IMG/VR virus record: IMGVR_UViG_3300042477_000769
DNA from: a virus
Taxonomy: Duplodnaviria; Caudoviricetes
Reading direction: 5' to 3' (one strand)
Length of the DNA: 64,000 nucleotides
Shown here: piece after piece, positions 365 through 62,768 of the stretch
Numbering within the stretch: position 1 is the stretch's first letter
Layout of the letters: each line of letters starts with the position of its first letter
Program-made: the position numbers and the translations under genes
Notes under the pieces: generated by a model
Databases searched by the model: none
What the model was told of the DNA's origin: nothing
The model's input: only the letters and a program-made list of their open reading frames with translations

Positions 365-3300
365 ATGTTTCTTAAAATAGGTGAAGCTATAGAAATTAAT
401 GGAGTAGAGAGCACTGAGTCTTGTCTACCCGCTGTCAATCCCGAAATTTTAGAAAATTTCAAAAAAATCGCCTCTAATTTAAAAAAGATTGCCCCCAAGG
501 CCGAGGACTTTCTCTACTTCTCTGCCGTAATGATGCATGCCGCAGAGGCAGCCGCTCTCAACGATGACGGCACCCGCAAACTCAATGCCAAAGGCCAACC
601 AGTCGAAGTAGGTTGGGATAAACGAGGAAACACTTGGAGATGGACTTCTAATGACCCCAATGTGAGACCTTATAAAAATGCGAATGGCGATATTTTTCCA
701 GAAGAAGAATTAGTTAAAGCCTATAAAAAATGGGTAGGAAAACCTCTGTGCATTGATCATAAATCCAGTTCCGTCGATCATGTCAGAGGTTTTATCGTTG
801 ATACTTACTATGATCGTAATTTAAAACGAGTGATTGCTTTATGCGCTTTAGATAAGGCTGGTTACCCTCAATTAGCTAGACAAGTAGCTACTGGAGTTTC
901 TAATTGTGTATCCATGGGTACGGCGGTAGGAAAAGCTATTTGTTCTGATTGTGCCACCGTAGCTAGAACAGAACATGATTTTTGTGATCATATGAGACGC
1001 AAATCATGTTATGGAGAAATTAATTTAGATTTAAATCCTATAGAATTATCGATAGTAGTAAATGGTGCAGATCCTAAAGCTAGCATTAAGCATATTATTG
1101 CGGCGGCTAACACTTTAAATTCTTATGTAGAAAGCAAACAACAAGAAATAAATAAGTTTGCGGATAATTTTAGCGCTCGTTTGAGTTTTAATGTTGGGGA
1201 TCAAAGAGATAATGCTTCGGTCACTGATATTGAAGTTAATTCTAGTGATTTAGAAAATTTCAAAAAAGATGTTGAAAAAGCTATTGCAGATTTCCAGGAA
1301 CTGCAATCTTCATTAAATGAAGAAGAAAAAATGCAAGAACATACTAATGAAACTGCATTTGATCAATTGCCAGAAGAGATTAACTCTTCGGCTGATTCTG
1401 GATTGGCTCCCCCACATGCAAGATTTGCATCCGCTAAAGTAGGGGTGGACCCTATTGCTGAGCTTCAAGAGGTCACTAAAGGTATTGAGGCCAAGTTAAG
1501 CCAAATGAAACACAGCTTAGATAAGTTAGTAAACACTTCTACACATACACAAGAGGAAACTATGTCAGGTACAAACAATATGAATAAGAAAGGTTATTAC
1601 CAAGGCGCTGGTGGAGTTAATGAACCTACTCCAGGACAAGCTAAATATCCTAAAGATCCGTTAAACGAGCAATTACGTGAACGGGAAGATAAACAAATGG
1701 TTGGTCAATCAGGATTCCCTGGTGTTGGACCCGTGGATGGAATGCATCCCAGCCCAGATTCGGCAGAACCTGCTAATGAATTAGAGCGCAAAAAAATGTT
1801 AGCTCGGGCAGAATCCGAAGAGCGCGCAGTTCGCCGACAAGCCATTATTAATTTAGCTAAATCAGCCTTAGAGAATAAGCAAGCTTATTTCCAAGGTGGT
1901 GGCGGCGTGAATGAGCCCACTCCTGGTAAAACCAAATATCCTGCTGACAAGTTAAATGAACAAGCTCGTGATAAAGAAGATAAGCAAATGGTTGGCCAAA
2001 AACCTTTCCCTGGTGTAGGCCCGGTCGATGGATTACACCCTAGTCCTAGTTCGGCTGATATGGCAGACGAATTAAAGCGTAAAGAAATGTTACGCCGAGC
2101 CTCTACCCTGAGTGCTAAATTTGCTTATGCTAGCAATAATGACGGTTCGATTAATAAAGGTGATTGTGCGTGGGAAGTTTATCGTGGCGACAAATTAATT
2201 TTGAGCGCTTCAGTTAATGAATTATCTGGTGGAAAACCAAATAAATTATATGCCAACATTGCTACCAAACCATTTGGAGCTAAACTATTAGAAAAAGTAA
2301 AAGCTCATGGAGTAGATAAAGTTCGTGCCTTAGTTAAAAGCGCTCAAGTTGCTCCTGAAATGACCCAAGAAATGGCGCCTCCTGCTGAAGCAGCTCCGGC
2401 TCCGGCTCCTGCTCCTGCTCCAGCTGGATTAGATCCAGTAGAAGACGCAGGTAAATCTGGCGATGTCAAAGAGTCTGCTTCTGAGTTAGCTGAAAAAGTT
2501 AGAGATTTAAGCTCTGATTTAGTAGAAACAGTTCGCGCGTTAGAAGGCGAAAAAGCTGAAATGGGCGAAGTAGATGGCGCCGGTGGCGAGATGGCCGCTG
2601 CAGCTTCCTTTAGTACCAAAACATTAAATTCTTTTAGAAAAGAATTAAATGGAATGTTAACAGAAGCGATGAAAGAAGCGGTAGCTAGTTTAGATGGTCA
2701 TGCGGAAGAATTAGATCTTATTAGTGGATTATATGATAAGGGAGTGGTATCCACAGCCAATCAAGAATTAGTAAATAACATTGCAGAAGATGCCTTAACA
2801 GAAGCTAAGACTGCAGTGGCTGATGGATTCAAATTAATGTCTGCTTTCGTGAAGTATGCTCGTGGCACTCAAGCTATTGTCAAACGTGCAGAAATTGAAG
2901 CTGAACTTGAAGCATTAGCTGAAGGAGAAAATATGGATGGCGTACATAGCAGTAACGATGGCGATGATGATTTAATGGCCATGATTTCTGACACTAATTC
3001 TGAATTAGAAGATGTCAAATCTTTAATGGAAGAAGATAAAGACATGGAAGATGAACATGAAAAATCATTATTTGAAACTGTCGTAGAAGAAGGCGAAGTG
3101 GAAGCTGACGCTTTAGCTGATGATCATAAAGATGATGACAATGATCTCAAGGCTGGAGATTTGAAGCCAGAAACTCAACTCAAGCCAGAAATGTTATCTC
3201 AAGCCTTTAATAGCAAAGCTGGTCGCGCTGCCTTAAGAGCCAAATTAGCTGCTGATGCCTTAGGTAAACAAGATGATGGTCAAGTTCAAGATATGTCGCG

Positions 3301-3964
3301 GGCTCATTTTAGCGATATGTTAGATGAGGCTAATGATTTAGCTGATGGTCAAACAGAATTAGATGTAAAGCCTTCTAATAACTTAGGTTATGTAGAAACC
3401 TTATCGGAAGTTAACAAATCCATGATGGATTTGGCTAAAGCTCCACCTAAGGTTCGTAAAGAGGCTGAAGCTATTCACAAATTAGTCTCGGAAGGCAAAT
3501 TAGATCCATCAGATTTAGATGAATTAGTCTCTGAAGGATTAGATAAAGATGCCGTAGCTTACTACCGCAAATACTGGGGTCAAGTAGATGGTGGCTCTGA
3601 ATTTGCTAATGAATTAGCTAAAGAGCATGTGAAAGCTAAGATGGAAGAAGAGCTAAATAACTATAAAGTTAAAATTGCTAGAGCTTATGAATTAGCTTAT
3701 GATATGGTGGAACGTGGTTTGTGCGCTTCCGATCGTATTCATGTGACAGCTCAAGTAGAAGAAATTATGAAGTTTAATGATGAGTCATTTGAATCTTTAA
3801 AGAGAGTCGTCGCTCAACATAACCCAATGTTACAAAAGTCTGCTCATCGTATGCCGCAAGTAGGGTTTATTGGTGCGGGCGAAACTCATAGTGCAACATC
3901 CGCAGATGATGATTGGTCTCAATTATCGGCAGCATTTGCTAAGACTAACAAAAGATTATTCTGA
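365..3964 (+). CDS. Prohead (capsid maturation) protease fused to a long scaffolding region
   Basis: N-terminal region has NANGDIF, DHK (His), VSMG (Ser) and ELSIVVNGADPKA motifs typical of HK97/assemblin-type prohead proteases, plus a CxxC..CxH insert. The rest is acidic and helical, ending in DDDWSQLSAAF. AGGAG RBS; upstream of the capsid gene. Confidence 0.8.
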   Translation: MFLKIGEAIEINGVESTESCLPAVNPEILENFKKIASNLKKIAPKAEDFLYFSAVMMHAAEAAALNDDGTRKLNAKGQPVEVGWDKRGNTWRWTSNDPNVRPYKNANGDIFPEEELVKAYKKWVGKPLCIDHKSSSVDHVRGFIVDTYYDRNLKRVIALCALDKAGYPQLARQVATGVSNCVSMGTAVGKAICSDCATVARTEHDFCDHMRRKSCYGEINLDLNPIELSIVVNGADPKASIKHIIAAANTLNSYVESKQQEINKFADNFSARLSFNVGDQRDNASVTDIEVNSSDLENFKKDVEKAIADFQELQSSLNEEEKMQEHTNETAFDQLPEEINSSADSGLAPPHARFASAKVGVDPIAELQEVTKGIEAKLSQMKHSLDKLVNTSTHTQEETMSGTNNMNKKGYYQGAGGVNEPTPGQAKYPKDPLNEQLREREDKQMVGQSGFPGVGPVDGMHPSPDSAEPANELERKKMLARAESEERAVRRQAIINLAKSALENKQAYFQGGGGVNEPTPGKTKYPADKLNEQARDKEDKQMVGQKPFPGVGPVDGLHPSPSSADMADELKRKEMLRRASTLSAKFAYASNNDGSINKGDCAWEVYRGDKLILSASVNELSGGKPNKLYANIATKPFGAKLLEKVKAHGVDKVRALVKSAQVAPEMTQEMAPPAEAAPAPAPAPAPAGLDPVEDAGKSGDVKESASELAEKVRDLSSDLVETVRALEGEKAEMGEVDGAGGEMAAAASFSTKTLNSFRKELNGMLTEAMKEAVASLDGHAEELDLISGLYDKGVVSTANQELVNNIAEDALTEAKTAVADGFKLMSAFVKYARGTQAIVKRAEIEAELEALAEGENMDGVHSSNDGDDDLMAMISDTNSELEDVKSLMEEDKDMEDEHEKSLFETVVEEGEVEADALADDHKDDDNDLKAGDLKPETQLKPEMLSQAFNSKAGRAALRAKLAADALGKQDDGQVQDMSRAHFSDMLDEANDLADGQTELDVKPSNNLGYVETLSEVNKSMMDLAKAPPKVRKEAEAIHKLVSEGKLDPSDLDELVSEGLDKDAVAYYRKYWGQVDGGSEFANELAKEHVKAKMEEELNNYKVKIARAYELAYDMVERGLCASDRIHVTAQVEEIMKFNDESFESLKRVVAQHNPMLQKSAHRMPQVGFIGAGETHSATSADDDWSQLSAAFAKTNKRLF
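1595..2101 (+). repeat. Two copies of a 72-codon module (1595-1810 and 1886-2101) inside the protease-scaffold gene
   Basis: YYQGAGGVNEPTPG...MLARA versus YFQGGGGVNEPTPG...MLRRA; 53 of 72 residues identical by manual alignment. Confidence 0.9.
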
Positions 3965-3994
3965 GCAAAATCAACAAACTGAATAGAGGATATT

Positions 3995-5078: not shown

Positions 5079-5603
5079 ATGGCAAAACCCAGCATAGAAC
5101 ACGAATTAGTCTTAGGAATGCAACAAGAATTGCAACCTTATGAAAAAAAGCAAGCAATGACCAATTTGGTCAAAGCGGCAGAATATCTTAATTCTGCTAT
5201 GGAAATATTGGAAGATGCTGGGTTAACCGCTAAAGCAGATCGAGTATTAAGAATCTTAGCTAAAATTGCTCAAGAACAAGATATTAATCAGGCTAAACTG
5301 TCTTCAGATGAAGAATTTTATCAAAAAATAATGAAGTGGTTAGATGATCCAAAAACTCCAGTAGACCCAGAACATCCACAACCCGGAGAAGAATTATCAT
5401 TTAACAGTCTATTAACCGAGCCAGCCAAAGATGAATTAACTTTTCAAAGTTTATTAACGCAAAAAAATGATCCTAAACCCTCCAATGATGACTTATTATT
5501 TAAAAGTATCGCCATGGAATTAGATGAAGATGATGAGTTAGTAAATTTACAAGATGAAGATCAAGAAAGCGATGAAGACGATTTATTTGAAGATGCAGAT
5601 TAA
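5079..5603 (+). CDS. Hypothetical, candidate internal head protein with acidic tail
   Basis: GGAG RBS; motif LVKAAEYLNSAMEILEDAGLTAKADRV; ends DEDDLFEDAD. Confidence 0.6.
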   Translation: MAKPSIEHELVLGMQQELQPYEKKQAMTNLVKAAEYLNSAMEILEDAGLTAKADRVLRILAKIAQEQDINQAKLSSDEEFYQKIMKWLDDPKTPVDPEHPQPGEELSFNSLLTEPAKDELTFQSLLTQKNDPKPSNDDLLFKSIAMELDEDDELVNLQDEDQESDEDDLFEDAD

Positions 5604-6460
5604 CTAATTAATTCTAAATATTTAGAATATTTCCTAGGTAAATATATAGTAGCCTCCTGATACATCCAAGATAATAACTTCTTAACTTGCAAATTGCCAC
5701 CCACCGAAAGTGTGGTGGTAATTGTATTTTTACCGCTTAAATGCAAACTCGGCGTAATATTTAAGTGTTGTTGGATAATATTTTTAACACCTTGGCAAAA
5801 ATCATGAGTTGATGTTATTTGCCAGCCCCAATTGATATAGCCCGTGGGTGTTGGCTGTTTCTGGTATAAACAACCATCTCCATCAAAATATCCACGAATA
5901 AAATGTTGTTGCATCTCAACTGAGGTTAACCAAGAAGGGAAAGTTAAGGTTAAACTTTTATTAGGCGTACAGCCTAAGTTAGTTAATTGCTGAGAGATAG
6001 TTTTATTATTTATTTTTAATAGGCAAGCTGGATAAGGAGGATTATCTATTTCTTTAATGATGCTGGTCGGAGAAATAATATCTCTAATTGTTTCTAGATG
6101 AGATTTGTCTAATGCCTGTAATTTGCAGCTAATTTCGTAATGATGTGGTGGCTTAATATAATTATTGCCGTCAGCATATAAAAATCCTAAAATATAAGCT
6201 TTTTCTTGAGAATCAATAACTTGAAAAAAATTTTCATCAGCTAAATATTTGGTAGTATATTGGGTCGTGGAACGAATTGGAATATTATTCCGACGTAAAG
6301 AATTAAGAACAAAAGTAGCCGAACAATTAAATTGGTGTGCTATTTGTGAACTAGTGGATCCAGATTGATATAGATCAATTATCTGGGAAATAACAGTAGA
6401 ATTATATTTTTTTCTTACCATGGTTGGATAACAAGATATATATCTGTAAGGAAAAACCAT
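5600..6460 (-). CDS. Free-standing two-motif LAGLIDADG homing endonuclease with N-terminal HTH
   Basis: AYILGFLYADG and HFIRGYFDGDG motifs; inserted antisense within the head module. Confidence 0.85.
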   Translation of the reverse strand: MVFPYRYISCYPTMVRKKYNSTVISQIIDLYQSGSTSSQIAHQFNCSATFVLNSLRRNNIPIRSTTQYTTKYLADENFFQVIDSQEKAYILGFLYADGNNYIKPPHHYEISCKLQALDKSHLETIRDIISPTSIIKEIDNPPYPACLLKINNKTISQQLTNLGCTPNKSLTLTFPSWLTSVEMQQHFIRGYFDGDGCLYQKQPTPTGYINWGWQITSTHDFCQGVKNIIQQHLNITPSLHLSGKNTITTTLSVGGNLQVKKLLSWMYQEATIYLPRKYSKYLELIS

Positions 6461-6496: not shown

Positions 6497-7186
6497 ATTC
6501 TTAGGCTAGTTCAAACCGGCAATGCGTTGCCGATGTCGTTTATTGTGGATCCGTCGGCTGAGTTCCAACCGGGGCAAATAGCGGAGCTGACCGTCATCGG
6601 CAACCAAGTCATGGCCACTGTCAGCAACGGCACCGCTCCTATTGGCATTATTGATGATATCAAGACTCGTGCTTTTACCAACGTATCGTGGAATGAGGTA
6701 GTGGTCGTACCTGCAGTTGGGGTACCAGGACCTAATGGAACTACCGTTACTCCGATTGATATTAAGGCAGAATTAAGAAAACCGAATATTGTGCCGTCTA
6801 GTTTTACTTCTACTATTGATGTGGTGTTAAATGCGGAAAATGGAGTTATTAAATTTGTGGCGGGCACTCCGTTAAATTTTGATTTAACTGGCACGGGCAC
6901 ACCGAATGCGATTCGAACCATAGTTAATTATACTTATTATGTGGCTAATATTCCGGGAGATGATAGTACTCAAGGATCAGGTCGAGTAACGGTCTGGTTT
7001 GATAGAATCTTTTTTCAGACTGATCAATATGAGACGAATCAACAATATCCAGTGAGAGCTAATTTGTATGTGAGTGAAATTGGAATGTTAACTACCCGAA
7101 GACCTAGCAATATTCATCCGGCAGTCGGGATGGTGACTGCGCCACCGTCACCCACCTTACCATTTATTGAAGTTTTATGGTACTAA
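6497..7186 (+). CDS. Capsid decoration/cement-like protein, paralog of the 13830 ORF; probable ATT start
   Basis: GGAGG at 6487-6491 is followed by in-frame ATT at 6497. (M)LRLVQTG aligns with MALKLLQPG, GSGRVTVW with GSGKVTCW, and LYVSEIGMLT with LFYTTAGLLT. Confidence 0.55.
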   Translation: MLRLVQTGNALPMSFIVDPSAEFQPGQIAELTVIGNQVMATVSNGTAPIGIIDDIKTRAFTNVSWNEVVVVPAVGVPGPNGTTVTPIDIKAELRKPNIVPSSFTSTIDVVLNAENGVIKFVAGTPLNFDLTGTGTPNAIRTIVNYTYYVANIPGDDSTQGSGRVTVWFDRIFFQTDQYETNQQYPVRANLYVSEIGMLTTRRPSNIHPAVGMVTAPPSPTLPFIEVLWY

Positions 7187-15715: not shown

Positions 15716-15745
15716 TAACTACGGCTAATTAGCCAAATAGTCTTC

Positions 15746-15769
15746 AAAAGCCACCTTACGGTGGCTTTT
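15746..15769 (+). terminator. Intrinsic terminator after the MCP gene
   Basis: AAAAGCCACC-TTAC-GGTGGCTTTT perfect hairpin. Confidence 0.8.
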
Positions 15770-15787
15770 GTCGTTATATCAATTCAT

Positions 15788-37663: not shown

Positions 37664-37666
37664 GTT

Positions 37667-44934: not shown

Positions 44935-44946
44935 CTCCCGCGCCCG

Positions 44947-46193: not shown

Positions 46194-46261
46194 GCATTCA
46201 ATATAACCCGTTTAGTTTCTCATATTAATGAGAAAATATATGTGTTAATTGGCATTTATAT

Positions 46262-46771: not shown

Positions 46772-46782
46772 CTGGAGTAATC

Positions 46783-48735: not shown

Positions 48736-48784
48736 AATAATAATAAAAGGACATACAGATAAATCTTTATAATACGAGAAATTA

Positions 48785-50140: not shown

Positions 50141-50186
50141 TATTCAATGAATACTAATTAAATTGTATCCAATACAAGGAGTTTGT

Positions 50187-50567
50187 ATGGAACAAATCTT
50201 TTTAGGATTTATAACCTGGCAATTTTTATTTTTTTGTTTAGCTCTTGGTGCATTAGTATATGTAGTTAGAACTTCAGTAGAATTTGCTTTACATAATACT
50301 AACAAAAATGCAAAGTGGTGGAGAGAATTGGTTCTCCCAATTTTTCCAATTGTGTTAGGTCCAACAGTTACTTTTTTTATTACTGTTTATCCATATCCTG
50401 AAGGATTTGATGGTGCCGGAGGTCGTTGGATTTTCGGATTAGTCGCGGGTTTTACTTCTGGATTTGTAGTAAGAATTTATAAATCTTGGCTATCTGGTAA
50501 AGTAACTGATTTAATCAGCCGACTAAAAGTAACCTTAACGCCAAATAAAGAAGAACCAAAAGAATAA
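50187..50567 (+). CDS. Holin-like membrane protein (three hydrophobic segments, charged C-terminus)
   Basis: AAGGAG RBS before ATG 50187; three TM-like stretches and a K/E-rich tail. Confidence 0.55.
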   Translation: MEQIFLGFITWQFLFFCLALGALVYVVRTSVEFALHNTNKNAKWWRELVLPIFPIVLGPTVTFFITVYPYPEGFDGAGGRWIFGLVAGFTSGFVVRIYKSWLSGKVTDLISRLKVTLTPNKEEPKE

Positions 50568-50605
50568 TAACAAATTTAGTTATATAAATTACCGATGGTA
50601 GGATT

Positions 50606-53600: not shown

Positions 53601-56600
53601 AAGTAACTCCTGGAATTAGCTCCACTTTAAAAATAAACTGGTTAGTCTGTATTAATTCTTTAGGAGATTATGAAATCTTACCGTTATTAGATCCAGATCC
53701 TATTTTAAATACGTCTAGCAATACTAATAGAGCTTTTGTTGGGCAAAACTTAGTCAATGGCGGAAGTTATAATTTAAATGGGACTACTTTCTCTAATGTT
53801 ATTAATAATAGAAAAGATTTAACCTTATTATATATTGCTGCCGCCACTTCAGTAGCTATTAATCCGCCTACTGTTAGCTTAGTAGTTCATGATATTAGAA
53901 AATTTGTCAATGATGGCGATACTATCTTACCATTAAAATTAACTTCAGCTAATAGTCAAGGTAATTTTAAAAACATTGTGCCAATTTTTAATTGGATTAA
54001 ATATAATAATGCTTTTAATGGTACCGTTATTGTTAAAGGCGCGAATGTTAATAATGCAACTGTTGCTGCTGCCACAGAATTACATTTTACTAGTGGAAAT
54101 GTTACTATAGATGGTCAAAATAATGCAACTATTACTTTTAATTCTGCCTTAACAGTAGGATCTAATTTAACATTTAAAGATTCGATATTAAATTTAAATG
54201 CTGGCATGTTTATTAAAACAAATGCCACTATTACCAATTTAATATTTGAAGGCTGCACGTTAAACGTTATTTTACCATCTTCTGCACCTAATACTACTGC
54301 GCTATTAGATATTAATAATGGAAGTAATATTAAATTTAAAGATTGTACTTTTAATGTAACTTGGAATAAAAGTTTGCCAGTTCAATCTTATGGATTGGAA
54401 ACTACTTTTCCCTGTTTAATTAGAGCGACTAATACGAGTAATTTTATCGTAGATAATTGTGTGATGTCTGTAGATTATACTACTGCTAGCGTAGGAGTTC
54501 CTCCTGGCGGACATATTGTGCTCATAGATAGTGATGATGCAATTATTAATAACTGTACTTTTAGTGGAAATACTGATAAAACTTTAACTATTAAAAGCTC
54601 TAATAATGTTAAATTTACAAATTGTAGTGTATCATCTACTTATAATCCCGTAGATGATGGATTTGATGCTACTAATTTGGTTAGTTCAGAAAGTGGTTAT
54701 GTTTATTGTAGAATGGATAATCCAGTAGATAACATTTTAATTGATAATATTTCTTTTAATTATGTTCCGGCAGGAGATCCAGCTGCAGATACGGATCTAA
54801 ATATTAGATATCCATTTATTAGTTTTGAATTAGTAGCGTTAAATGCCACTTTAAGCAACTTAACCATTAATAATTGTAAATTTAATCATTTAAATACTGG
54901 AGCAGTAGTTACTGATATTAGACCAGGTATTGCTATTGTCAATACATATTCTGCTTTAGCTGGACCCACATTACCTAATGCCCAACAAGTTAATTTAATT
55001 AATGCTAATATTACTAAGAATATTGGTAATAGAAACCAATCTATTATCATTACTTCTAGACGCGATAGCGCTGGATTAATGAATTATCCTGGATTAGCGG
55101 CTCAAGGATGTAACATTAAAGATAATATTTGCGGAAATATTGGATATTTTATTTCTAGCGCCGTACAAACAGTTAATTTATCTCCCAACTATACTAGTTT
55201 GCCAGATAAATTAACAGGTTTAACTATTGAAAACAATGTCTGTCATTATATTTATAATTGTGACGAAGATGGTTACTCTTTCTTAATGTCTAAATTAGTA
55301 GGCGGCTCTAGTTCTAATCGTTGCGCGTATCCAAGTGGGTATGTAGATATTAATAAAAATAAGGCCAATTGGATTCATGTCGGTTGTGCTTATGAACAAC
55401 AAAGCGGGCTAAATATTACTAATAACGTACTTCAAGCATATTCAGAATCTTATTTAAATATGTTTGGAGCTAATGAAGGTAATTTTTATGGACCAGTCTC
55501 TGGTACTCGTTCTTTTAAGTATGCTATTTTTGTAAGTACTAATAAATATAAGATGAATCCAATACAAAGCCCTTCAGAAGGGAATGATACTTCCATTTTA
55601 ATTTCTGGAAATATTGTTAATCAGGGTTACTGGTATTTATCTAATGGTGTAGTTAACAATTATACTTATACTAATGGCTATATTTTCTGTCAAGGTTCTA
55701 GCACTATTACAGATAATATTTTAAGAGGTGCTGGTGTAGGCAATTTAATTCTAGTTGGTGGTTTACGTAATATTATCAAGGGAAATAAAATTTATCGAGA
55801 TAATATTGATGTTACCTCTTACATTAGATTTGATAATTTTGATACTCCTAATTGGGATAGTAACCCAGACGGAGAGGGTGCTGGTTCTCAAGGCTTAGTA
55901 GTAGATAATTTCTTTGATAAACCAACAATTAATGCTGTCGGAGTAACCGGATCATTTAACGGATTATCTTTTTTTGGAGCGATAAATATTCCTTCTACTG
56001 CGGCACCTGGATGGATTGTAGAAAGAAATAAAAATCAAACAGGAATTGCCATTGTTCCCTGGACTAATGGTCATATATTATATCATACTACAGGTGGATC
56101 TGCTTTTGGACCAGATGGTTATGATGACCTTTATATGAAACCTGCAAATAATAATCCTTCAGGAACTTTTACTGGAGAATATCGCTCTAGAGTTTTAAGA
56201 TTTAGAGATACAGAATCTGTTGGTTTTAGATTATGGGGAGTTCAGGTTAATTTAGAGGCATTTTTACCAAATGGAGTTCGAGTGTTAGAAGTTTCTTCGG
56301 CTATTCGATCTTTTGGCACCCAAGTTGATTATAATCCAGCATCTCCTCCAGCAGCTACTTCTAATTTTTGGATTAATTTAAGTTCACAAGATATGCAAAA
56401 TATCGGAGTAGGAACTTTTTCTTTAGATAATTTTAGCACAGTTTCTGATAACGATGATGGTGTATTTGAAATTAATAACACTGTCTTTTCTAATGTTACA
56501 GGCGGAGATTTTAATTCTAGTAGCTTAGCTCTTCCTTTTGAAATTGACTTAACTAACTATAATGGAAATGATATTTCTAATAGATACATTACTGGCCGAG

Positions 56601-56704
56601 GAATTGGTATAACTTTATCTTTAGATGCTAGATGGGCAAGAGATTCTATTTTTTTTGGTACTGAGTTCTTAATTTCTCCAGTACTTGTTACATATCGATG
56701 GTAA
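50606..56704 (+). CDS. Very large virion protein with a C-terminal parallel beta-helix (spike/appendage, possibly depolymerase-like)
   Basis: N-terminal FP..FDDD...EAINASRNAIFNIEQNIG anchor-type motif; repeated I.NC.F, I.NN and I..N Asn-ladder motifs in the last third. Confidence 0.6.
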   Translation: MSFPNTFDDDTTIPFVNDNIVEIGGEAINASRNAIFNIEQNIGLNAQGSMPTIAARLNVSLLPDGNIRPSAIASMGLVTLPIVDSQIADWAAIPERKLQLDHRTQDLFNYIRDLSGDVNTAIGWINSTGIKLEPHLLGQIYRHELSQINVSSAPINFLDNNLRLLRDNSDSYKLIKDINSELLAHQWADGSPFGTISNIITNDGSTFPNNFAHTAGGIFINTSRFATIPQTADDLQAFAEFIDSTSIFLLGTRLQNLYSNGISRESRSTSLLNDGYGAPIIPSTPAIAFLKNLGNSSSPVDDINNGDDIVELLPPTSVLSNNSFDQKFALVQVGDIIRVNYGTIEVAFVIKEKKYIQNGGNKRFIIRIAGKNIQYAPNASVRIDKPLVNINKYGVLAVSAVNSGNASVPASLITVNPRGAQALGLGFNPDQFDASHYMLYLALFTTGSPNDGYIILPPIDVTGNAGTTPGAYTLNSVVEATNNAFRRAGFNYRFVAFQYQGEFGIALADSYGNAGFSILNAVVNSNGTLNETETNIVFPNNVVSMFSDDGTTGPDPLGFGPTGSAVASPPYQASYPSAEAAVLPTKLFLPLKRNNYYVNGTEREKLNLDIDQVLDTYGDGYWPATIVAQTITPGPSGSVKTTYRVALDLSASQLKIGKTLVVQSLDGTGTSPNDFGRFIIENISLSCSPSNYTDITVLDAVHGLGTTGSSGLVLGVGGKVALYFSQDSIALNAESATDFSEVSPFKRFFEIYVDENGNTFTHERARFNSGGISPLIINDNIPLVNNSELIKLNFVKVSPKLTGYPYGSINKITLFMNSYDNVTGNYDGYLAAWDGNLATPATHRGPVVSGKRGLVSRFYDETYLDYIDIVFDFNSTVSSFADQKLDIQLFPSLALNSQIMTIGSCQYNDVSNVINYINDDRQFGNISEKDLTTSALNYIAAPERLLHGNGVIKGFELQNIPGLTNPRRGNIYLTGGELLVNGKFIQKNDETVIIPAMREVTPGISSTLKINWLVCINSLGDYEILPLLDPDPILNTSSNTNRAFVGQNLVNGGSYNLNGTTFSNVINNRKDLTLLYIAAATSVAINPPTVSLVVHDIRKFVNDGDTILPLKLTSANSQGNFKNIVPIFNWIKYNNAFNGTVIVKGANVNNATVAAATELHFTSGNVTIDGQNNATITFNSALTVGSNLTFKDSILNLNAGMFIKTNATITNLIFEGCTLNVILPSSAPNTTALLDINNGSNIKFKDCTFNVTWNKSLPVQSYGLETTFPCLIRATNTSNFIVDNCVMSVDYTTASVGVPPGGHIVLIDSDDAIINNCTFSGNTDKTLTIKSSNNVKFTNCSVSSTYNPVDDGFDATNLVSSESGYVYCRMDNPVDNILIDNISFNYVPAGDPAADTDLNIRYPFISFELVALNATLSNLTINNCKFNHLNTGAVVTDIRPGIAIVNTYSALAGPTLPNAQQVNLINANITKNIGNRNQSIIITSRRDSAGLMNYPGLAAQGCNIKDNICGNIGYFISSAVQTVNLSPNYTSLPDKLTGLTIENNVCHYIYNCDEDGYSFLMSKLVGGSSSNRCAYPSGYVDINKNKANWIHVGCAYEQQSGLNITNNVLQAYSESYLNMFGANEGNFYGPVSGTRSFKYAIFVSTNKYKMNPIQSPSEGNDTSILISGNIVNQGYWYLSNGVVNNYTYTNGYIFCQGSSTITDNILRGAGVGNLILVGGLRNIIKGNKIYRDNIDVTSYIRFDNFDTPNWDSNPDGEGAGSQGLVVDNFFDKPTINAVGVTGSFNGLSFFGAINIPSTAAPGWIVERNKNQTGIAIVPWTNGHILYHTTGGSAFGPDGYDDLYMKPANNNPSGTFTGEYRSRVLRFRDTESVGFRLWGVQVNLEAFLPNGVRVLEVSSAIRSFGTQVDYNPASPPAATSNFWINLSSQDMQNIGVGTFSLDNFSTVSDNDDGVFEINNTVFSNVTGGDFNSSSLALPFEIDLTNYNGNDISNRYITGRGIGITLSLDARWARDSIFFGTEFLISPVLVTYRW

Positions 56705-56707
56705 TCT

Positions 56708-57529
56708 ATGGGCGCAAATAATTTCTTTAAAAGCAATTTAATGTCTTTACATAACGTGGTACAAGCCTCCATGTTAGTGTATCCTAAAGAAGTTATTATT
56801 GCTACGTTAAGAGATTATTTCTCTAAAGATGATTATTATCATTATGCCAAAGATCAATGGGGTTTTGCTAACACTATCGATCATACTGATTTACCTCCAG
56901 GGGCCGATATTCCAACCTCTCATAATCAATATGGAGCCAATGAAGAGGGATTAAGCACTCGGGTGTTTATTGGAGAAAATTATCGATATAATGGAATTTA
57001 TTATCCAGCTATTTTAGTCAAAAGCGGCGGCAGTACTTATGTGCCTATCTCTATTAATAGAGAACAGGAAGCTGTACAATATGAAGATATTGTATATGAA
57101 GATGGATATGGTAATCAAACTGTAGTTTCTAAACCTAAAGCTTTTGTGACAGCTGGTGCCTGGGAAGGCAGTATTATTATTGATATTTTATCTAGAAGCT
57201 TGCGAGCAAGAGATGATTTATCAGAAGCTATTGCTATGTGTTTTACTGAATTTTATTTTGATAGTTTATATGATATTGGAATTATTGTAAAACCTCCAAT
57301 TATTGGAGGCGCCAGCGAAACTGATGATAGAAATGATAAGCTTTTTCGCCAAAGTATTACGTTAAATGTTAGAACTGAATGGCGAAGAGAGATTCCAGTA
57401 GGCAATTTAATTGATACTATCTTTTTTACCGTTATTTTTGAAGATATTAGCAAGCCCGCTAATCCAGTACCTGCTAATTTAACTATTAATACCGAAGTTA
57501 GTTTAACTGATTTGTTAATCAATCTATGA
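56708..57529 (+). CDS. Putative tail terminator/tail completion protein
   Basis: YPAILVK, GSIIIDILSRSLRARDDLSE, LFRQSITLNVRTEW; lies just before the sheath gene. Confidence 0.55.
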   Translation: MGANNFFKSNLMSLHNVVQASMLVYPKEVIIATLRDYFSKDDYYHYAKDQWGFANTIDHTDLPPGADIPTSHNQYGANEEGLSTRVFIGENYRYNGIYYPAILVKSGGSTYVPISINREQEAVQYEDIVYEDGYGNQTVVSKPKAFVTAGAWEGSIIIDILSRSLRARDDLSEAIAMCFTEFYFDSLYDIGIIVKPPIIGGASETDDRNDKLFRQSITLNVRTEWRREIPVGNLIDTIFFTVIFEDISKPANPVPANLTINTEVSLTDLLINL

Positions 57530-58203
57530 AAATTTGCACCAAATGCCAGATAGAAAAATCTTTATCTGATTTTGGATTAAGAAAAAGAAAGTTAAAGTCA
57601 GGAATTAAAGAATATTATTCTATTTACTGCAAAACTTGCATTAACCAAACGGCTAAAAATTTTAGAAAACTTCATCCTTATCAAACAAGCGAATCTATCA
57701 AACTATCTAAACAAAAATGGGAAGAAAATAATAAAGAAGCTAGAAAACAATATCAAAAAAACTATTATCTTCTTCACAAGGAAGATTTTCAAAAACGCGC
57801 TAATAATCAACAATATAAAGAAAACAAACGCAAATATCATCAACAAAGACGACAAGATCCAATTTTTAGAATAAAAGAGAATATTTCTAATGCTATTTAC
57901 AAGGCATTAGTGAAAGGTAAAACATCTAAAGCTGGAAATAGTATCCTTCAGTTTTTAGGATATTCTATCCAGGATTTAAAAAGTCATTTAGAAAGTTTGT
58001 TTACTGATAATTTTAATTGGGATAATTATGGCGTTGTTTGGCATATTGATCATATTATTCCACATAGTAATTTTTCTTATCTGTCGATGACAGATCCATC
58101 TTTTACGCAATGTTGGGCCTTAGCAAATTTAAGACCGTTAGCTGCCGCTCAAAATATGAGAGATGGAAGTACTCGAGTCAGACATTTAAAGAAGAATATA
58201 TGA
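57526..58203 (+). CDS. HNH homing endonuclease-like protein (DHIIP family)
   Basis: KICTKC; HLESLF..FNWDNYG..WHIDHIIP...NLRPLAAAQN. Confidence 0.8.
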   Translation: MKICTKCQIEKSLSDFGLRKRKLKSGIKEYYSIYCKTCINQTAKNFRKLHPYQTSESIKLSKQKWEENNKEARKQYQKNYYLLHKEDFQKRANNQQYKENKRKYHQQRRQDPIFRIKENISNAIYKALVKGKTSKAGNSILQFLGYSIQDLKSHLESLFTDNFNWDNYGVVWHIDHIIPHSNFSYLSMTDPSFTQCWALANLRPLAAAQNMRDGSTRVRHLKKNI

Positions 58204-58249
58204 ATAATACTATATAACAATGAATATTTACTTTTAATGGAGTTTCATA

Positions 58250-61200
58250 ATGGCTAACATTCCAGGCGCAACAAATGTCCTACCCGGAGTTTTTACAGAC
58301 GTAATTACTCAATCCCGTGGCGTCTCCGTTCCTGGTGGTTCTCGTATAACTGCTATGATTGGAGAGGGCTCAACAGATGAGACTTTAGTATCACAAGCGG
58401 TAGGTGGTGGGCAAGACGGCCTTAACCCTAGCTATACTGGAACAACTGGTAGAGATGGTAGACACTTTCAATTATCAAGTTTTCCATTAATTTCTAATCG
58501 TACTACTTTATTTAAAAATGGAATTCCATTAAGAGGTTTAGAATCAACTATTGATACTAATCCATTTAGCAATTCTTTTGATTACCGAATTGATATTACT
58601 ACTGGCCAAATAGAATTGCAACGCGCTCATTTAGTTGACCAAGGTGGTTCTTTATGGACCGCCCTTTCTACCAATGTGGGGTTAGGATCAGTTAATAATT
58701 TAACTTTAGTAGATCCTAATGCACAACCAGAAAACTGGACGATTCGTTGTATCAAAGTTCAACGTGATGCGTTAAATAATCCGATTGGTGGAACCGCCTC
58801 TTTCTTAGCTTTTGGCTCTATTTCGGGAGCAAAATTAGATGCTAACGGCAATCCTATTGTTTGGATTGCTAATAATAATGTAGTGAGCAATGGTGTGATT
58901 AGCTTCTCTATTTCGGAAACTATGGTAGGACCCAATGCAGTATCTCCTTTTAGAGAGGGAGATGGATTCTTAGTAGTGGTAGATAGTGGTGTGTTAGTTA
59001 GAAATGATTCCTTAACAGCTAATTATATTGCTACGGCCAATCTAAATGATCCTATTTTATTGCAAGGTTTAGGTGATGTAGTTACCCGTCATGGATTACC
59101 CAGTTTAACTAATAATTTATCGTTAGGCGCCCAATTAGCTTTTGCGAATAATGCTCCGGCGTTATTAACAGTGCAAGCAGCACCGGCTCTACCACGTAGA
59201 ACTTCTTACGTTTTAGATCAATCAGTAAATGCTTTATCTCCAGACCAAGATGATTTTATTTTCCCATTACCAGTAGGCGTAGTTCCAGATTTTAATTCAG
59301 AAATTCATTTCTTTGTTAAAAACAACGCTACCAATGTCGAAACGCAATTATTGCCTAATAAGTTAACTTATTATACCTTAGATACGGCAGGCAATCCTAC
59401 TACTAGCTCCTTTATTTTTGACAATACTCCTGCCCCTGGCGGATATTCATATTTCTATACCGTCAAAGAAGGCTTAGAAGCGATGAGCTTTGGAGAAGAT
59501 GGTTATATTGGTCGCAATTTAGCTTTCTTTAATCAAGGTGAGTTTAGCTCTGCCTCTCAAGTCTTTGATGCGAGCTATGTAGGTAAAGCTTTAAAGATTA
59601 TTGATTCAGTTAACTCTGCCAATATTGGGGTGTTCCGAGTTACCGCTGTTAATAATGGTAAATTATATGTGGTAGCAGATGGTAATACCTTCCCGCCATC
59701 TACTTTAACTGCCAGCCCCACTTTCTTGTCTGATTTTGTTAATGAATCAAGCGTAGGTTTTAAAGTAATTAATCCTGTTACTGGATTAGAAGTAGTAGGC
59801 GGTTCTGGTACAAATGGAGTTATTGTTACCTCTGGAGCTTCTACAGGTACTGCTACTTTACGTAGTACCACTGTAGCCTTTACTGCTATTAGCGGTATTA
59901 CTAATTATCGATTACAGATAAACGGATCTACTATTTCTACAGATGCATTACCAGTAGGTAATGATGGTCTGTATGATATTACGTCAGCCGCTACATTTAG
60001 CATTAATGCTGCCACTAATGCTAGCCCCATTGCTATTACTACTACTGCAAATCATAATTTAACAACAGGTAAAACGGTAACTATTACTGGTGTAGTAGGT
60101 AATACGGCAGCTAATGGTACCTTTGTCATTACTGTTACTGGGTTGAATTCATTTACTCTGAACGGTTCAACAGGTAATGGTGCCTATACTAGCGGTGGAA
60201 CAGTATTCCCACACGTAATTACTATTAAAAAAGCCATTGTTAATGAAAATAATCTAGAGTTTATTGTTCAAGATCCTAGCGCTAATAGTAATTATATTGT
60301 GTTAAATAAAAATATCGTTCCCAATGGTAATGGTTTACGCGTTACTATTGTCGACGCTAGAGATGCAACTTTCTTTGATGCGGGCTGGATTAATGCCTTA
60401 GAATCATTAGAAGCAGTAGAGTGCGATATTTTGGTACCTTTACCAAAACAAACTATTTCTATCATCTTCCAAAATGCCTTAAGTCATTGTTTAGCTATGA
60501 GTAATATTCGTAACAAAAAAGAACGAGTCTTATTTATCGGAGCTATTAATGGATTAACCCCAGATAATTTAACGGGAGCACAATCTGCCGCCGTAGAAGA
60601 TATCGGCATCTTAGAAGGTATTCAAGGAGAAACTGTCACTGATATTTTGTCAGGTAATATTGAAGACTTAGCTAATTATTCAGTACCTAATGCTTTCGGT
60701 AATACCTTCCGAGCAGTTTATTTCTATCCAGACCAAATTGTGGTCCAAGCCGGAACAGAAAATGTCTTAATTGATGGTTTCTATTTAGCTGCCGCTGCTG
60801 CTGGATATGAATCGGCCGATGTAAGATTGGAAAATCCATTAACTAATAAAGTTTTAAGCGGATTTACCATCTTAAGAAATAAACAATTCTCTCCACAAAC
60901 ATTAGAAGCTTTAGCTACTGCCGGTGTTACTACTTTACAACCTGTGGCTGGTGGTGGTCGAGTAGTTTGGGGTATCACCACGACTCAAAGTGGCTTCCCT
61001 GAAGAGCAAGAAATCTCTATCGTCTTTATTAGAGACCGAGTAGCTAAGACTTTAAGAGCAGGATTCCAAGGATTTATTGGATTAGCAGAGACTCCAAATA
61101 CTGGAGCTATCTTAAATACTCGTGGAGTAATCTTACTCAACTCGTTAGTGTCACAAGGATTAATTACTCAATATAAGGACTTATCGGTGCAGAGAGACGA

Positions 61201-61294
61201 GGTTGATCCGCGTCAGTGGAATATCTCGGTTAGAGTACAACCGACATATCCCGTTAACTTCATCTACATCCGCGTCAGCCTCGGTCAACTATAA
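58250..61294 (+). CDS. Contractile tail sheath protein with several inserted domains
   Basis: N-terminal PGVFT; C-terminal PLTNK..GF, EALATAGVTTL..GGGRVVWGITT, EISIVFIRD..A and V.VQPTYPVNFI are sheath signatures. Confidence 0.9.
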   Translation: MANIPGATNVLPGVFTDVITQSRGVSVPGGSRITAMIGEGSTDETLVSQAVGGGQDGLNPSYTGTTGRDGRHFQLSSFPLISNRTTLFKNGIPLRGLESTIDTNPFSNSFDYRIDITTGQIELQRAHLVDQGGSLWTALSTNVGLGSVNNLTLVDPNAQPENWTIRCIKVQRDALNNPIGGTASFLAFGSISGAKLDANGNPIVWIANNNVVSNGVISFSISETMVGPNAVSPFREGDGFLVVVDSGVLVRNDSLTANYIATANLNDPILLQGLGDVVTRHGLPSLTNNLSLGAQLAFANNAPALLTVQAAPALPRRTSYVLDQSVNALSPDQDDFIFPLPVGVVPDFNSEIHFFVKNNATNVETQLLPNKLTYYTLDTAGNPTTSSFIFDNTPAPGGYSYFYTVKEGLEAMSFGEDGYIGRNLAFFNQGEFSSASQVFDASYVGKALKIIDSVNSANIGVFRVTAVNNGKLYVVADGNTFPPSTLTASPTFLSDFVNESSVGFKVINPVTGLEVVGGSGTNGVIVTSGASTGTATLRSTTVAFTAISGITNYRLQINGSTISTDALPVGNDGLYDITSAATFSINAATNASPIAITTTANHNLTTGKTVTITGVVGNTAANGTFVITVTGLNSFTLNGSTGNGAYTSGGTVFPHVITIKKAIVNENNLEFIVQDPSANSNYIVLNKNIVPNGNGLRVTIVDARDATFFDAGWINALESLEAVECDILVPLPKQTISIIFQNALSHCLAMSNIRNKKERVLFIGAINGLTPDNLTGAQSAAVEDIGILEGIQGETVTDILSGNIEDLANYSVPNAFGNTFRAVYFYPDQIVVQAGTENVLIDGFYLAAAAAGYESADVRLENPLTNKVLSGFTILRNKQFSPQTLEALATAGVTTLQPVAGGGRVVWGITTTQSGFPEEQEISIVFIRDRVAKTLRAGFQGFIGLAETPNTGAILNTRGVILLNSLVSQGLITQYKDLSVQRDEVDPRQWNISVRVQPTYPVNFIYIRVSLGQL

Positions 61295-61319
61295 TCCTCT
61301 CAGATATAGTTGGTAGAGA

Positions 61320-62051
61320 ATGGCTACCCAATTAACTCCATCACAATTAGATAAAATACAAGAGCTCTACCATCAAGGTTTGGGCTCTCGTAAAATTGCC
61401 CTAATAATTGGAGTTAACAGAAGTACTATTCAAAGAAGTTATCAACAACTTCAGTTAAATAGTGCGGCTAAAAAATTACCTCGATTAGCTTCTCAATATA
61501 CGGAAAAATATTGCAAAATTTGTGGCGATCTTAAAAAGATAGAGTTTTTTAGAAAACGATGCAATCAGAAAACACAACGAATTTCTTTTGAAAGCTATTG
61601 TAAAGAGTGCGAATATAGAAGAAATAACGAGAGATTAAAAAGAGCAGCTAAAATATTAAGACAGACTAATCCTAATTTTGTTATTAGAAAAAGTCTGTCT
61701 TATTTTATTTGGAAATCATTGGCCAAATCTAATTCCAGCAAACAAGATCAGAGTTGCTTGCAATTTCTTCCATATGCCATAGAGAAACTTAGATTACATT
61801 TAGAGTCACAGTTTGAACCCTGGATGAACTGGGATAATCATGGCAGTTATCGTAAACATACCTGGAACGATGATGATAGTAGTACTTGGAGTTGGCAAAT
61901 AGATCATATTATTCCACAATCAGATTTGCCGTATACTAGTATGGCAGAAGAAAATTTTCACAAAAGTTGGGCGTTAAATAATTTGAGACCTTTGTCAGCT
62001 AAGCAAAATTTATTAGATGGAGCCAGGAAAATAAGGCATAAAATTATATAA
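61320..62051 (+). CDS. HNH homing endonuclease-like protein (WQIDHI family) with N-terminal HTH
   Basis: HLESQFEPWMNWDNHG...WSWQIDHIIP...NLRPLSAKQN. Confidence 0.8.
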   Translation: MATQLTPSQLDKIQELYHQGLGSRKIALIIGVNRSTIQRSYQQLQLNSAAKKLPRLASQYTEKYCKICGDLKKIEFFRKRCNQKTQRISFESYCKECEYRRNNERLKRAAKILRQTNPNFVIRKSLSYFIWKSLAKSNSSKQDQSCLQFLPYAIEKLRLHLESQFEPWMNWDNHGSYRKHTWNDDDSSTWSWQIDHIIPQSDLPYTSMAEENFHKSWALNNLRPLSAKQNLLDGARKIRHKII

Positions 62052-62081
62052 GATAAACACTATATTGTTTAGGAGTTTACG

Positions 62082-62768
62082 ATGGCTAATGCCGCTAATA
62101 CAGGATCTACACTTACTGTGGCTGGTAGCAATGTTAATAAAACTAGCACTGCTATTTCCACTAATATTATTATTTTAGTTAATAATCAGGCCGTAGGTGC
62201 GGTACAACAAATGCAAATTAATGAGCAGAGAAATATTACAATGATCGATGAAGTCGGCACAGATGGCCATATTGATTCTGTTCCTACTAGCTCTACTAAT
62301 ATCAGTGGGAGTTGTACAAGAATTAGATTTGATCGTTTAAGAATTACTGAAGCTTTTAGTCGAGGATTTATCCATGTAGCTTCTCAAGTGTATCCTTTTG
62401 ATATTGTTATTTTAGATAAACAAAAACGAGATCAAGGAAGTCAAATTTCTACTATTATTAAAAATGTATGGATTGAAAGTCTAGGTTATACTTATGATGC
62501 TGGTAATTGGGTAATTTCTGAAAATATGGGATGGAAAGCTGAGACTATCTTTAGCGTGTTGAACAATGGTAGTTCGCAACCAGTGGCTGTGGGCGGAGAG
62601 CTTGGAATTAAGCATATGGGTGCGGGACCGAATGGTATTGTGAACATTACGAGCGGAGATGGTATTACCAACATCGAGCAATTAGTCGACACCGGCGCAA
62701 GTGGTCGTCGTGGCTCTCTCGATGCCGCCGGCTTAATTGACATTGGTTCTTCTGGAGACCTCTTCTAA
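62082..62768 (+). CDS. Tail tube protein
   Basis: Follows the sheath; VGAVQQMQINEQR..EVG...VP..ISGSCTRIRF, PFDIVI and IKNVWI.SLGYTY are tube-type motifs; AGGAG RBS. Confidence 0.8.
   Translation: MANAANTGSTLTVAGSNVNKTSTAISTNIIILVNNQAVGAVQQMQINEQRNITMIDEVGTDGHIDSVPTSSTNISGSCTRIRFDRLRITEAFSRGFIHVASQVYPFDIVILDKQKRDQGSQISTIIKNVWIESLGYTYDAGNWVISENMGWKAETIFSVLNNGSSQPVAVGGELGIKHMGAGPNGIVNITSGDGITNIEQLVDTGASGRRGSLDAAGLIDIGSSGDLF

Follow-up and report, generated by a model that had tools for sequence, protein, structure and literature searches.

The DNA considered here is the 64-kb stretch of IMG/VR record IMGVR_UViG_3300042477_000769 (hereafter the window), and its subject is the set of free-standing homing endonuclease genes scattered through it, together with the gene segments that adjoin them. 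The window has a G+C content of 35.5% and corresponds to the structural module of a large myovirus-type phage, in which a prohead-protease-like gene, the gene for the major capsid protein (MCP; phrog_2522 match at 1e-76), a gene for a 1014-aa tail sheath protein, and a cluster of sugar- and methyl-transferase genes were identified. The head-maturation-protease-like gene occupies positions 365-3964 on the plus strand. Two labels are retained from a first-pass annotation of the window: the 'adaptor' gene (44035-44934, plus strand), which has no Pfam or PHROG match, and the 'tail tube' gene (62082-62768, plus strand), whose match to phrog_985 ('virion structural protein') is weak (4.6e-4). The gene g6527, termed a decoration-protein paralog in that annotation, matches no family and shows a weak tblastn match to g13830 (E = 0.08), and g40640 codes for a poorly conserved protein of 105 aa. 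Where genes such as these abut an endonuclease gene, their silent sites are rich in G and C, in several cases with G-ending codons preceding C-ending ones, and the same codons end in A or T in related phages.

Free-standing homing endonucleases are abundant in large phages, and targets are known for a handful of them, each of which had to be mapped at the bench. Nine such genes were recognized in the window by use of PHROG and Pfam matches, visible HNH motifs, and jackhmmer links. Eight of the nine match a homing-endonuclease domain in PHROG or Pfam, and the ninth, HEG6, was assigned through jackhmmer and a visible HNH-like motif. They are as follows.

HEG1, 3-332, plus strand: HNH; the window start truncates this 214-aa gene, leaving its C-terminal part, with the motif HLDHKIPL...N..NL.
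HEG2, 5600-6460, minus strand: LAGLIDADG; phrog_4645 at 9e-54, PF14528.
HEG3, 15761-16354, plus strand: HNH; phrog_1035 and phrog_374 at ~1e-18.
HEG4, 16677-17810, plus strand: LAGLIDADG; phrog_4645 at 2e-48.
HEG5, 40973-41770, plus strand: EndoVII-motif/HNH; phrog_1035 at 7e-24; in a jackhmmer family shared with HEG6-8.
HEG6, 44947-45708, minus strand: no direct Pfam or PHROG match; CxxC..CxxC and a 'WQIDHIIP...NLRP' motif.
HEG7, 57526-58203, plus strand: EndoVII-motif; phrog_1035 at 9e-10; no convincing adjoining patch.
HEG8, 61320-62051, plus strand: helix-turn-helix and EndoVII-motif; PF13936, phrog_1035 at 2.5e-9.
HEG9, 62784-63668, plus strand: HNH with a treble-clef zinc finger; phrog_681 at 3e-44, phrog_559 at 1e-36, PF14311.

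The full HEG1 gene, carried by contigs L200 and L204, matches PF01844 and phrog_1035/2118. HEG6 is linked by jackhmmer to HEG5, HEG7, and HEG8 at 1e-67 to 1e-87, and homologues with 43-54% identity to it occupy the same site in some relatives; a search with HEG5 against PDB sequences gave no match. Outside the window, three more genes match HNH or GIY-YIG families. Each endonuclease gene is an open reading frame (ORF) of its own between intact neighbouring ORFs, the neighbour proteins align end to end with their relatives, and none of the endonuclease genes lies within an intron or intein. Their occurrence is sporadic: at the MCP locus some relatives have an HNH or LAGLIDADG gene on the downstream side, some on the upstream side, and some none (HEG3 homologues themselves lie on one or other side of the MCP gene in part of the relatives and are missing from others), endonuclease presence is equally sporadic at the adaptor, tube, and g6527 loci, and in none of 25 relatives is the protease gene preceded by an endonuclease gene.

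The first-pass annotation had drawn attention to eight GC-rich patches in core genes next to these endonuclease genes on the basis of G+C counted by hand in 60-nt lines, and had called for a sliding scan free of chosen windows. All 16 of its counts proved exact. The scan, in which third-position G+C (GC3) was computed in 30-codon sliding windows over all 52 window genes (mean 0.21, sd 0.10), recovered the islands beside the endonuclease genes: within the window, GC3 reaches 0.6 or more only at 425-634, 6527-6706, 15269-15703, 40730-40924, 44740-44934, and 61130-61294, and the tube end (62532-62756) peaks at 0.53. Every one of these islands, as well as the tube end, lies 19-99 nt from an endonuclease ORF. 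The patches have GC3 values of 0.47-0.66 against the 0.20-0.25 expected from their own amino acids (z = 5.6-8.3), and because the observed values exceed this expectation by so much, the rise in G+C belongs to silent positions. Seven of the eight proposed patches are thus carried by third positions rather than by amino-acid composition. The eighth, at the sheath start (58250-58429), is not: its GC3 of 0.32 is near expectation (z = 1.4) and positions 1 and 2 are GC-rich (0.58), so that its G+C is owed to Gly, Pro, Ser, and Arg codons. The patches of the window, with observed and expected GC3, are listed below.

Protease gene, 485-604, plus strand: codons 40-80; C-ending only; GC3 0.65 against 0.25, z = 6.4.
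g6527 start, 6527-6706, plus strand: G-ending, then C-ending from about nt 6590; 0.62 against 0.25, z = 7.3.
g13830 near its 3' end, 14370-14489, plus strand: a weaker, C-dominated patch with no adjacent endonuclease gene; 0.45 against 0.22, z = 3.6.
MCP 3' end, 15464-15712, plus strand: G and C mixed, within a broader rise from about 15269; 0.60 against 0.25, z = 8.3.
g40640, 40760-40909, plus strand: G-ending, then C-ending from about nt 40796; 0.66 against 0.23, z = 8.0.
Adaptor 3' end, 44770-44931, plus strand: order G-C-G-C; 0.59 against 0.22, z = 7.2.
Tail sheath 3' end, 61130-61291, plus strand: G-ending, then C-ending from about nt 61250; 0.52 against 0.20, z = 6.3.
Tube 3' end, 62532-62765, plus strand: G-ending, then C-ending from about nt 62643; 0.47 against 0.23, z = 5.6.
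g63685 start (the gene after HEG9), 63727-63822, plus strand: a smaller patch, G-ending only (13 codons in G, 4 in C); 0.53 against 0.25, z = 4.2.

In the protease gene the first 40 codons are of normal composition. The endonuclease ORFs of the window have GC3 values of 0.20-0.26, the genomic background, right beside patches that peak at 0.6-0.77 in 30-codon windows. The collagen-like gene described further below offers an internal contrast, being 50% G+C by virtue of codon positions 1 and 2 with a GC3 of 0.17.

Contigs of the same phage extended the analysis by 2.4 kb upstream of the window and by about 64 kb beyond its other end, reaching about 128 kb in window coordinates. Neither an endonuclease gene nor an island of 0.6 or more occurs in the first 35 kb past the window. 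Beyond them, a glycosyltransferase gene carries an island (99,535-99,756; GC3 0.70) 226 nt before an HNH gene, and the sole strong island of the following 18 kb (GC3 0.70) begins at the first codons of an oxidoreductase-like gene that directly follows a GIY-YIG/NUMOD3 endonuclease gene at about 124.4 kb. Across 112 kb of genome, the zones within 200 nt of endonuclease genes account for 3.4% of non-endonuclease coding DNA and contain six of the seven islands of 0.6 or more, the seventh being 226 nt away (binomial p ~1e-8). Over the full length of roughly 128 kb, none of the eight islands at this threshold is more than 230 nt from an endonuclease gene, and no comparable island was found elsewhere. 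About 9 of 13 endonuclease genes have a clear patch, and HEG4 is accompanied by a moderate rise in its downstream gene. Patches accompany four unrelated classes of nuclease, namely LAGLIDADG, several HNH subfamilies, EndoVII-motif, and GIY-YIG enzymes, and the recurrence of one type of patch beside all of them indicates a shared downstream process.

Several hundred relatives of this phage are present in IMG/VR, on contigs of 200-480 kb with 28-48% G+C; a DNA search with the MCP region against the GenBank phage collection gave no match. The phage itself recurs at 100% identity in many lake-water metagenomes, its copies being identical over their aligned lengths except for a variant contig, L194, which diverges inside HEG6. 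The adaptor protein on 12 contigs is likewise 100% identical to that of the window except on L194, and the next-closest adaptor relative has 85% protein identity. No endonuclease-free strain was seen among the copies of this phage; Logan contigs from four lake-water runs covering 44000-63999 were low-depth fragments with no joint that skips an endonuclease gene, and are uninformative either way on such strains.

When the window was aligned codon by codon to its relatives, more than 200 of them proved to be A/T-ending at the patch codons, with the encoded protein 85-98% identical. At codons 40-80 of the protease gene, GC3 is 0.70/0.60 in the window and 0.32/0.20 in 25 relatives, with an amino-acid identity of 0.98 at codons 40-60. 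At codons 0-60 of g6527, 67 distinct relatives are A/T-ending, and amino-acid identity is 0.90 in the patch as opposed to 0.80 elsewhere; in 49 endonuclease-free relatives, patch-minus-rest GC3 averages +0.02 (maximum 0.12), compared with +0.33 in the window. The MCP patch codons have a GC3 of 0.32-0.46 in 63 relatives, the adaptor, tube, and MCP genes repeat the pattern of the protease gene and g6527, and both available relatives of g40640 are A/T-ending at its patch codons. Endonuclease-free relatives therefore lack the patches at the protease and g6527 loci, as the alignment proposed in the first-pass annotation had anticipated, and the protein conservation that it expected inside the patches is seen as well (amino-acid identities of 0.98, 0.90, and 0.96-0.99). 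None of the three outcomes that it had named as refuting came about, the other two being comparable islands far from endonuclease genes and a G+C rise owed to amino acids rather than third positions. Silent-site identity to relatives drops to 0.23-0.36 inside the patches from 0.5-0.6 outside. Silent sites are saturated across all relatives, which precludes the tracing of co-converted tracts. The protein segments encoded by the patches are the most conserved ones, which is what homing targets would be expected to show; the C-terminal peptide of the adaptor, for example, is conserved across 120 homologues.

The silent changes have a direction. At four-fold sites where the family majority is A or T, changes to G or C number 51 and changes between A and T number 8 in the patches, compared with 65 and 51 elsewhere in the same genes (p = 4e-5); exchanges of A for T thus make up 8 of 59 changed sites in the patches and 51 of 116 elsewhere. 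Leu and Arg codons have moved by two steps, from TTA to CTC or CTG and from AGA to CGC or CGG, including in the adaptor patch. Since four-fold sites go to G or C and Leu and Arg codons shift twice, the change is directional and not merely diversifying. At codon positions 1 and 2, changes from A/T to G/C outnumber the reverse by 11 to 3 in the patches and by 49 to 42 elsewhere, a difference that is not significant (p = 0.14). An adenine-specific mutational process was considered and rejected, as family bases A and T each gave rise to G as well as to C (T to C 23, A to C 10, T to G 10, A to G 8).

The silent changes also have an order. When G and C were shuffled among the G/C-ending codons within each patch, a G-then-C order was significant (p < 0.03) in 6 of 10 patches, namely those of g6527 (0.005), g40640 (0.002), the sheath end (0.023), the tube (0.0002), the glycosyltransferase gene (0.007), and the oxidoreductase-like gene (0.027), with a combined p of 3e-7 as against 0.96 for the reverse order. 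The order is not inherited, because T is the majority third base of the family in the first and the second half of the tube patch alike, and it is not tied to amino acids, because Val is GTG and then GTC, Gly GGG and then GGC, and Ala GCG and then GCC. These two-phase patches stand beside LAGLIDADG, EndoVII-motif, phrog_559/681-type HNH, and GIY-YIG genes, whose products differ in how they recognize DNA, and not beside the classical HNH genes HEG1 and HEG3. The first-pass annotation had supposed that silent change from an AT-rich baseline simply tends toward G/C; this accounts for two-fold codons and fails for four-fold codons (p = 4e-5) and for the order. Because a G-then-C sequence reads identically on both strands, the pattern has two-fold symmetry around a central position, to the 5' side of which either strand is G-rich. 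A double-strand break has the same geometry in its two 3' tails or its two heteroduplex arms.

These features can be drawn together in a model to which we assign a probability of roughly 45%, namely that each patch is a tract centred on the break site of the adjacent enzyme, built by base-biased and side-dependent repair, in an allele that the enzyme can no longer cut. The patch would be the segment of the neighbouring, usually conserved, gene that holds the recognition and cleavage region of the free-standing endonuclease. Repeated repair of endonuclease-provoked breaks and gene conversion in this lineage, rather than ordinary drift, would have accumulated the substitutions: mismatches in heteroduplex, or damage and fill-in on 3' tails, may have been resolved with a base bias that depends on the side of the break, so that, on either strand, silent sites would be rich in G on the 5' side of the break and rich in C on the 3' side, while purifying selection on the protein would have removed all but the silent changes. 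The endonuclease ORF, which has no homologue in the recipient, would never enter heteroduplex and so would stay at background composition. An allele formed in this way should escape cutting and hence persist with its endonuclease gene. On this model the switch from G to C would mark the cut site, the biased repair would have made the tract, and the resident allele would be immune; that the patches map the target regions of the endonucleases is a plausible inference. More tentative than the model as a whole is its most specific form, a possibility in which the G-then-C patches record the break of each enzyme together with polar, base-biased, side-dependent repair of its flanks, i.e. GC-biased gene conversion in a virus. 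The silent excess of A/T-to-G/C changes (p = 4e-5) that is localized to the presumed break sites (p ~1e-8) is what GC-biased gene conversion would leave. Two precedents bear on the separate steps: free-standing endonucleases have cut sites away from their own genes and their flanks are co-converted (PMC2988022), and in a single-strand-annealing reporter in mouse cells the position of the break sets the strand bias of mismatch resolution (PMC9001825).

A number of observations weigh against this model. Patches are not seen wherever the same hot spot exists, and most endonuclease-bearing relatives are without strong patches at the same sites: two endonuclease-positive tube relatives have patch-minus-rest GC3 values of 0.00 and -0.02, the MCP gene shows no GC3 difference in endonuclease-positive relatives, and 13 endonuclease-positive g6527 relatives average +0.06 against +0.33 in the window. 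Across the family, the excess at gene ends adjacent to endonuclease genes is small (+0.05 versus +0.016, p ~0.01) and is partly confounded by the generally GC3-richer MCP gene. Some AT-rich relatives (L037, L071, L085, and L088) do have islands beside endonuclease genes, and the islands in relatives show no G|C order. Within the phage itself, 3 of the 13 endonuclease genes, including HEG7 and the HNH gene at about 102.5 kb, lack a clear patch, the protease patch has C only, the g63685 patch G only, and the MCP and adaptor patches are mixed, and patch edges are sharp rather than graded. To our knowledge no cleavage site is known for these enzymes, nor any biased repair activity in phages. Because endonuclease-bearing relatives mostly lack strong patches, the strong form of the patch is a property of this lineage, and the need for an extra, lineage-specific factor is the main weakness of the break-repair model.

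The closest rival, which we regard as somewhat unlikely, holds that the tract was selected, whether to protect the resident allele from its own or related endonucleases, as a homology barrier that forces copying of the gene, or as both; it may also have acted together with a break-repair footprint. Much of the evidence fits it. Patches are confined to the endonuclease-bearing genome and sit on the most conserved segments, at codons that are A/T-ending in relatives; silent-site identity to relatives falls inside them; nucleotide identity in the adaptor patch has a median of 0.62 against 0.75 in the rest of the gene, with a protein at least as conserved; and Leu and Arg codons are altered at two positions. 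There is also precedent, in that in WHO elements of yeasts a resistant alternative 3' half of FBA1 and positive selection at the target have been described (bioRxiv 10.64898/2026.08.13.744650), and in T4 the endonuclease gene is inherited only if resection reaches homology beyond it (PMC2988022). Recoding to escape self-cleavage was the proposal of the first-pass annotation, and its placement and protein conservation hold up. It is less successful with the G/C direction, the G-then-C order, and the mostly unpatched relatives, which manage their endonucleases without such tracts, so that recoding is not a general requirement for self-immunity. The tracts, at 120-250 nt, are far longer than the usual 14-40-bp recognition site. 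Selection leaves the same order across four enzyme classes without a reason, and A-for-T changes at four-fold sites are not raised in the patches; this can be reconciled with selection only by the argument that relatives vary between A and T at four-fold sites, so that only G or C differs from every potential target.

A third explanation, that the tracts were copied from a GC-richer relative, either alongside the endonuclease gene or during template-directed repair of a self-inflicted cut, is improbable, although the family does span 28-48% G+C among the loci fetched, the sharp patch edges resemble recombination junctions, the tube gene of relative L142 has a GC3 of 0.69, and contig L203 has the same GCC/CCC/CTC codons in its protease patch. 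The GC3 of endonuclease genes follows that of the resident genome (r = 0.77 over 78 endonuclease genes in relatives), and in the window it is at background level next to the patches. In four of five genes, patch GC3 tops all sampled relatives (maxima of 0.42 for the protease, 0.54 for the adaptor, and 0.55 for the MCP; for g6527 the highest listed is 0.47), and the best nucleotide identity to any relative in any patch is 0.66-0.82, similar to or below that outside the patch. Degenerate patterns of conserved peptides written in GC-style codons matched 1, 0, and 0 times: in IMG/VR the protease pattern has one partial match, in L203, and the MCP pattern none, and a metagenome-collection scan with the adaptor pattern found no match and missed the window's own sequence too, so that the source samples may lie outside that collection. 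Nor would general GC-richness yield a G-then-C order. The GC-richer donors invoked as a second possibility in the first-pass annotation are thus disfavoured.

A cause unrelated to homing, such as codon selection, RNA structure, a regulatory signal, or a hidden gene at the ends of highly expressed structural genes, is very improbable, since orthologous codons are A/T-ending in relatives and patches also occur in the non-structural glycosyltransferase and oxidoreductase-like genes, despite an overall rise of GC3 in the MCP gene, a bump at its codons 220-240 in nearly all relatives, and antisense ORFs of 71-136 aa that overlap three patches. The antisense ORFs (6511-6921, 15532-15747, and 62492-62743) have no PHROG or other family match and are expected by-products of G+C. 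RNA structure was set aside because the predicted folds of seven patches gain no stability over dinucleotide shuffles (z = -0.4 to +0.9), the adaptor end, with its terminal hairpin, being a partial exception at -1.9; a search for a shared motif, restriction-like palindromes, or a dinucleotide signature found nothing recurrent, and CpG is not depleted inside the patches.

The setting is that of classical intronless homing, as carried out by the Seg and Mob enzymes of T4 and by cyanophage F-CphI. As in those systems, free-standing HNH, GIY-YIG, LAGLIDADG, or EndoVII-motif genes lie between conserved genes and occur sporadically among relatives. For F-CphI, immunity comes from an intron that splits the recognition site. 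In intronless homing generally, the enzyme cuts within an adjacent gene, some way off from its own coding sequence, and leaves the resident allele intact, while co-conversion carries the flanks along (PMC2988022). An extended silent tract, a GC direction, and a G-then-C order are not described for T4 or the cyanophages in the literature searched. More broadly, nothing in that literature describes silent tracts of this kind, directed toward G/C and ordered G-then-C, next to the endonuclease genes of phages. In ICP1 phages, homing endonuclease genes mark boundaries of genetic exchange between related phages; a term search of that study turned up nothing on synonymous sites and a single passing reference to GC content, and it describes no directional recoding or G|C order (PMC10448857).

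The closest known idea, that of an endonuclease gene travelling with a resistant end of its target gene, is embodied in the WHO elements of Torulaspora yeasts. There, as here, the endonuclease gene directly follows an essential or conserved gene whose diverged end keeps its protein. The diverged end is resistant to cleavage, and an arms race is under way at the target region; the recognition site is 28 bp, amino acids diversify, and displaced 3' fragments of FBA1 pile up downstream (bioRxiv 10.64898/2026.08.13.744650). No compositional direction or polarity has been reported for WHO elements, whereas the divergence in this phage is silent and directional. Displaced remnants of the WHO type were sought by tblastn of the seven patch-bearing gene ends against the window, which returned self-matches only, all others having E values of at least 0.08.

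Two further comparisons concern the tract itself. In angiosperm mitochondria, the cox1 homing intron leaves a donor-derived exonic co-conversion tract of about 20 nt with no GC bias or order. It resembles the present patches as a short tract of silent differences beside a homing element and has been used as a homing footprint; the phage tracts differ in being 120-250 nt long and directional, with no donor found. GC-biased gene conversion and strand-coordinated mutation clusters are features of eukaryotic meiosis and cancer genomes and are debated for bacteria. The pattern in this phage shares with them a silent A/T-to-G/C enrichment centred on a presumed break and a bias that switches strand at a point, and is far denser than GC-biased gene conversion elsewhere (up to 77% GC3 in a genome at 21%). 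We know of no description of either process in a virus, nor of a tie between either and homing endonucleases.

Several observations were made in passing at the patches themselves. The weaker g13830 patch may be the footprint of a vacant homing site, for which the HNH gene found between the g13830 homologue and the MCP gene in at least 10 relatives makes it a candidate. The last 13 codons of the adaptor gene (44896-44934) form a near-perfect hairpin, CTAGATTAA...ATCTGCG GGCA CGCAGAT...TTAATCTAG, which ends at the stop codon, faces the convergent HEG6, and may be a terminator embedded in coding sequence. In the C-phase of the tube patch (62690-62711), a low-depth contig from run X12 has T, T, and A for C, C, and C at three consecutive third positions, along with three further differences, and comes either from a relative or from a strain whose patch is less recoded. 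Contig L203 (IMGVR_UViG_3300010343_000557; 37% G+C) has GCC/CCC/GCC/CTC/GCC at four-fold codons of the protease patch and A/T at two-fold ones, over the last 60 nt before the contig ends inside the patch; these codons could be an intermediate state. The commonest island in relatives is the bump at MCP codons 220-240 (15314-15373 in the window), found in almost every relative (L001-L080; mean GC3 0.55) regardless of endonuclease content. Another common island (L002:2879-3097, L008:3800-3889, L020:3029-3124, and L056:6486-6575) lies about 240-260 nt from the 3' end of a minus-strand gene of about 410-420 aa that follows the MCP gene and that, by size and strand, may be the counterpart of the CCA-adding enzyme gene of the window (20457-21689).

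Others concern the endonuclease genes and their edges. After the MCP gene, at about 15745-15770, lies a terminator-like hairpin, AAAAGCCACC TTAC GGTGGCTTTTGT, that overlaps the listed GTG start of HEG3 at 15761; the true start may be an ATG near 15787. Independent assemblies (L191, L192, L194, L199, and L201) break exactly at endonuclease gene edges, at about 322 and 45097-45100. From nt 45100, L194 runs into a different HEG6-like sequence with a different upstream gene, a divergence inside HEG6 that may be a paralogue-induced join, and two runs yielded contigs in which 45071 adjoins 58109 on opposite strands, HEG6 and HEG7 being inverted paralogues. These breaks and joins are either products of repeats or the mark of genuine variation, or of an inversion, between paralogous endonuclease genes.

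Elsewhere in the window, a collagen-like ORF (24121-31050, plus strand) codes for 2309 aa consisting mostly of G-X-Y repeats and is probably a fibre or decoration protein. Inside the structural module, at 31126-40624, lie glycosyltransferase, methyltransferase, epimerase, and oxidoreductase genes assigned by Pfam family, a cluster that suggests glycosylation of the virion or of DNA. The same genome carries a TubZ-like tubulin gene (L211:19431-20789, at about 108.3 kb) and a gene for an Fpg/Nei-type DNA glycosylase (PF01149, PF06831; L211:15732-16568, at about 104.6 kb). The glycosylase is at most a candidate source of a lineage-specific repair bias.

If the patches are indeed the target regions and the G-to-C switch the break, then targets could be proposed for LAGLIDADG, HNH, EndoVII-motif, and GIY-YIG enzymes from their genomic surroundings alone, and the cut sites of uncharacterized endonucleases of these four classes would be readable to within a few codons from a single genome. 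The pattern would then also give the first indication that GC-biased conversion operates in a virus, and would mean that biased conversion shapes viral genes. The direction and order of the silent changes suggest a repair bias tied to the geometry of the break, which would bear on whether biased repair or selection drives local base composition. Should the adaptive interpretation prove true instead, this phage would present a counterpart of the arms race of the yeast WHO elements, one that is fought at silent sites only.

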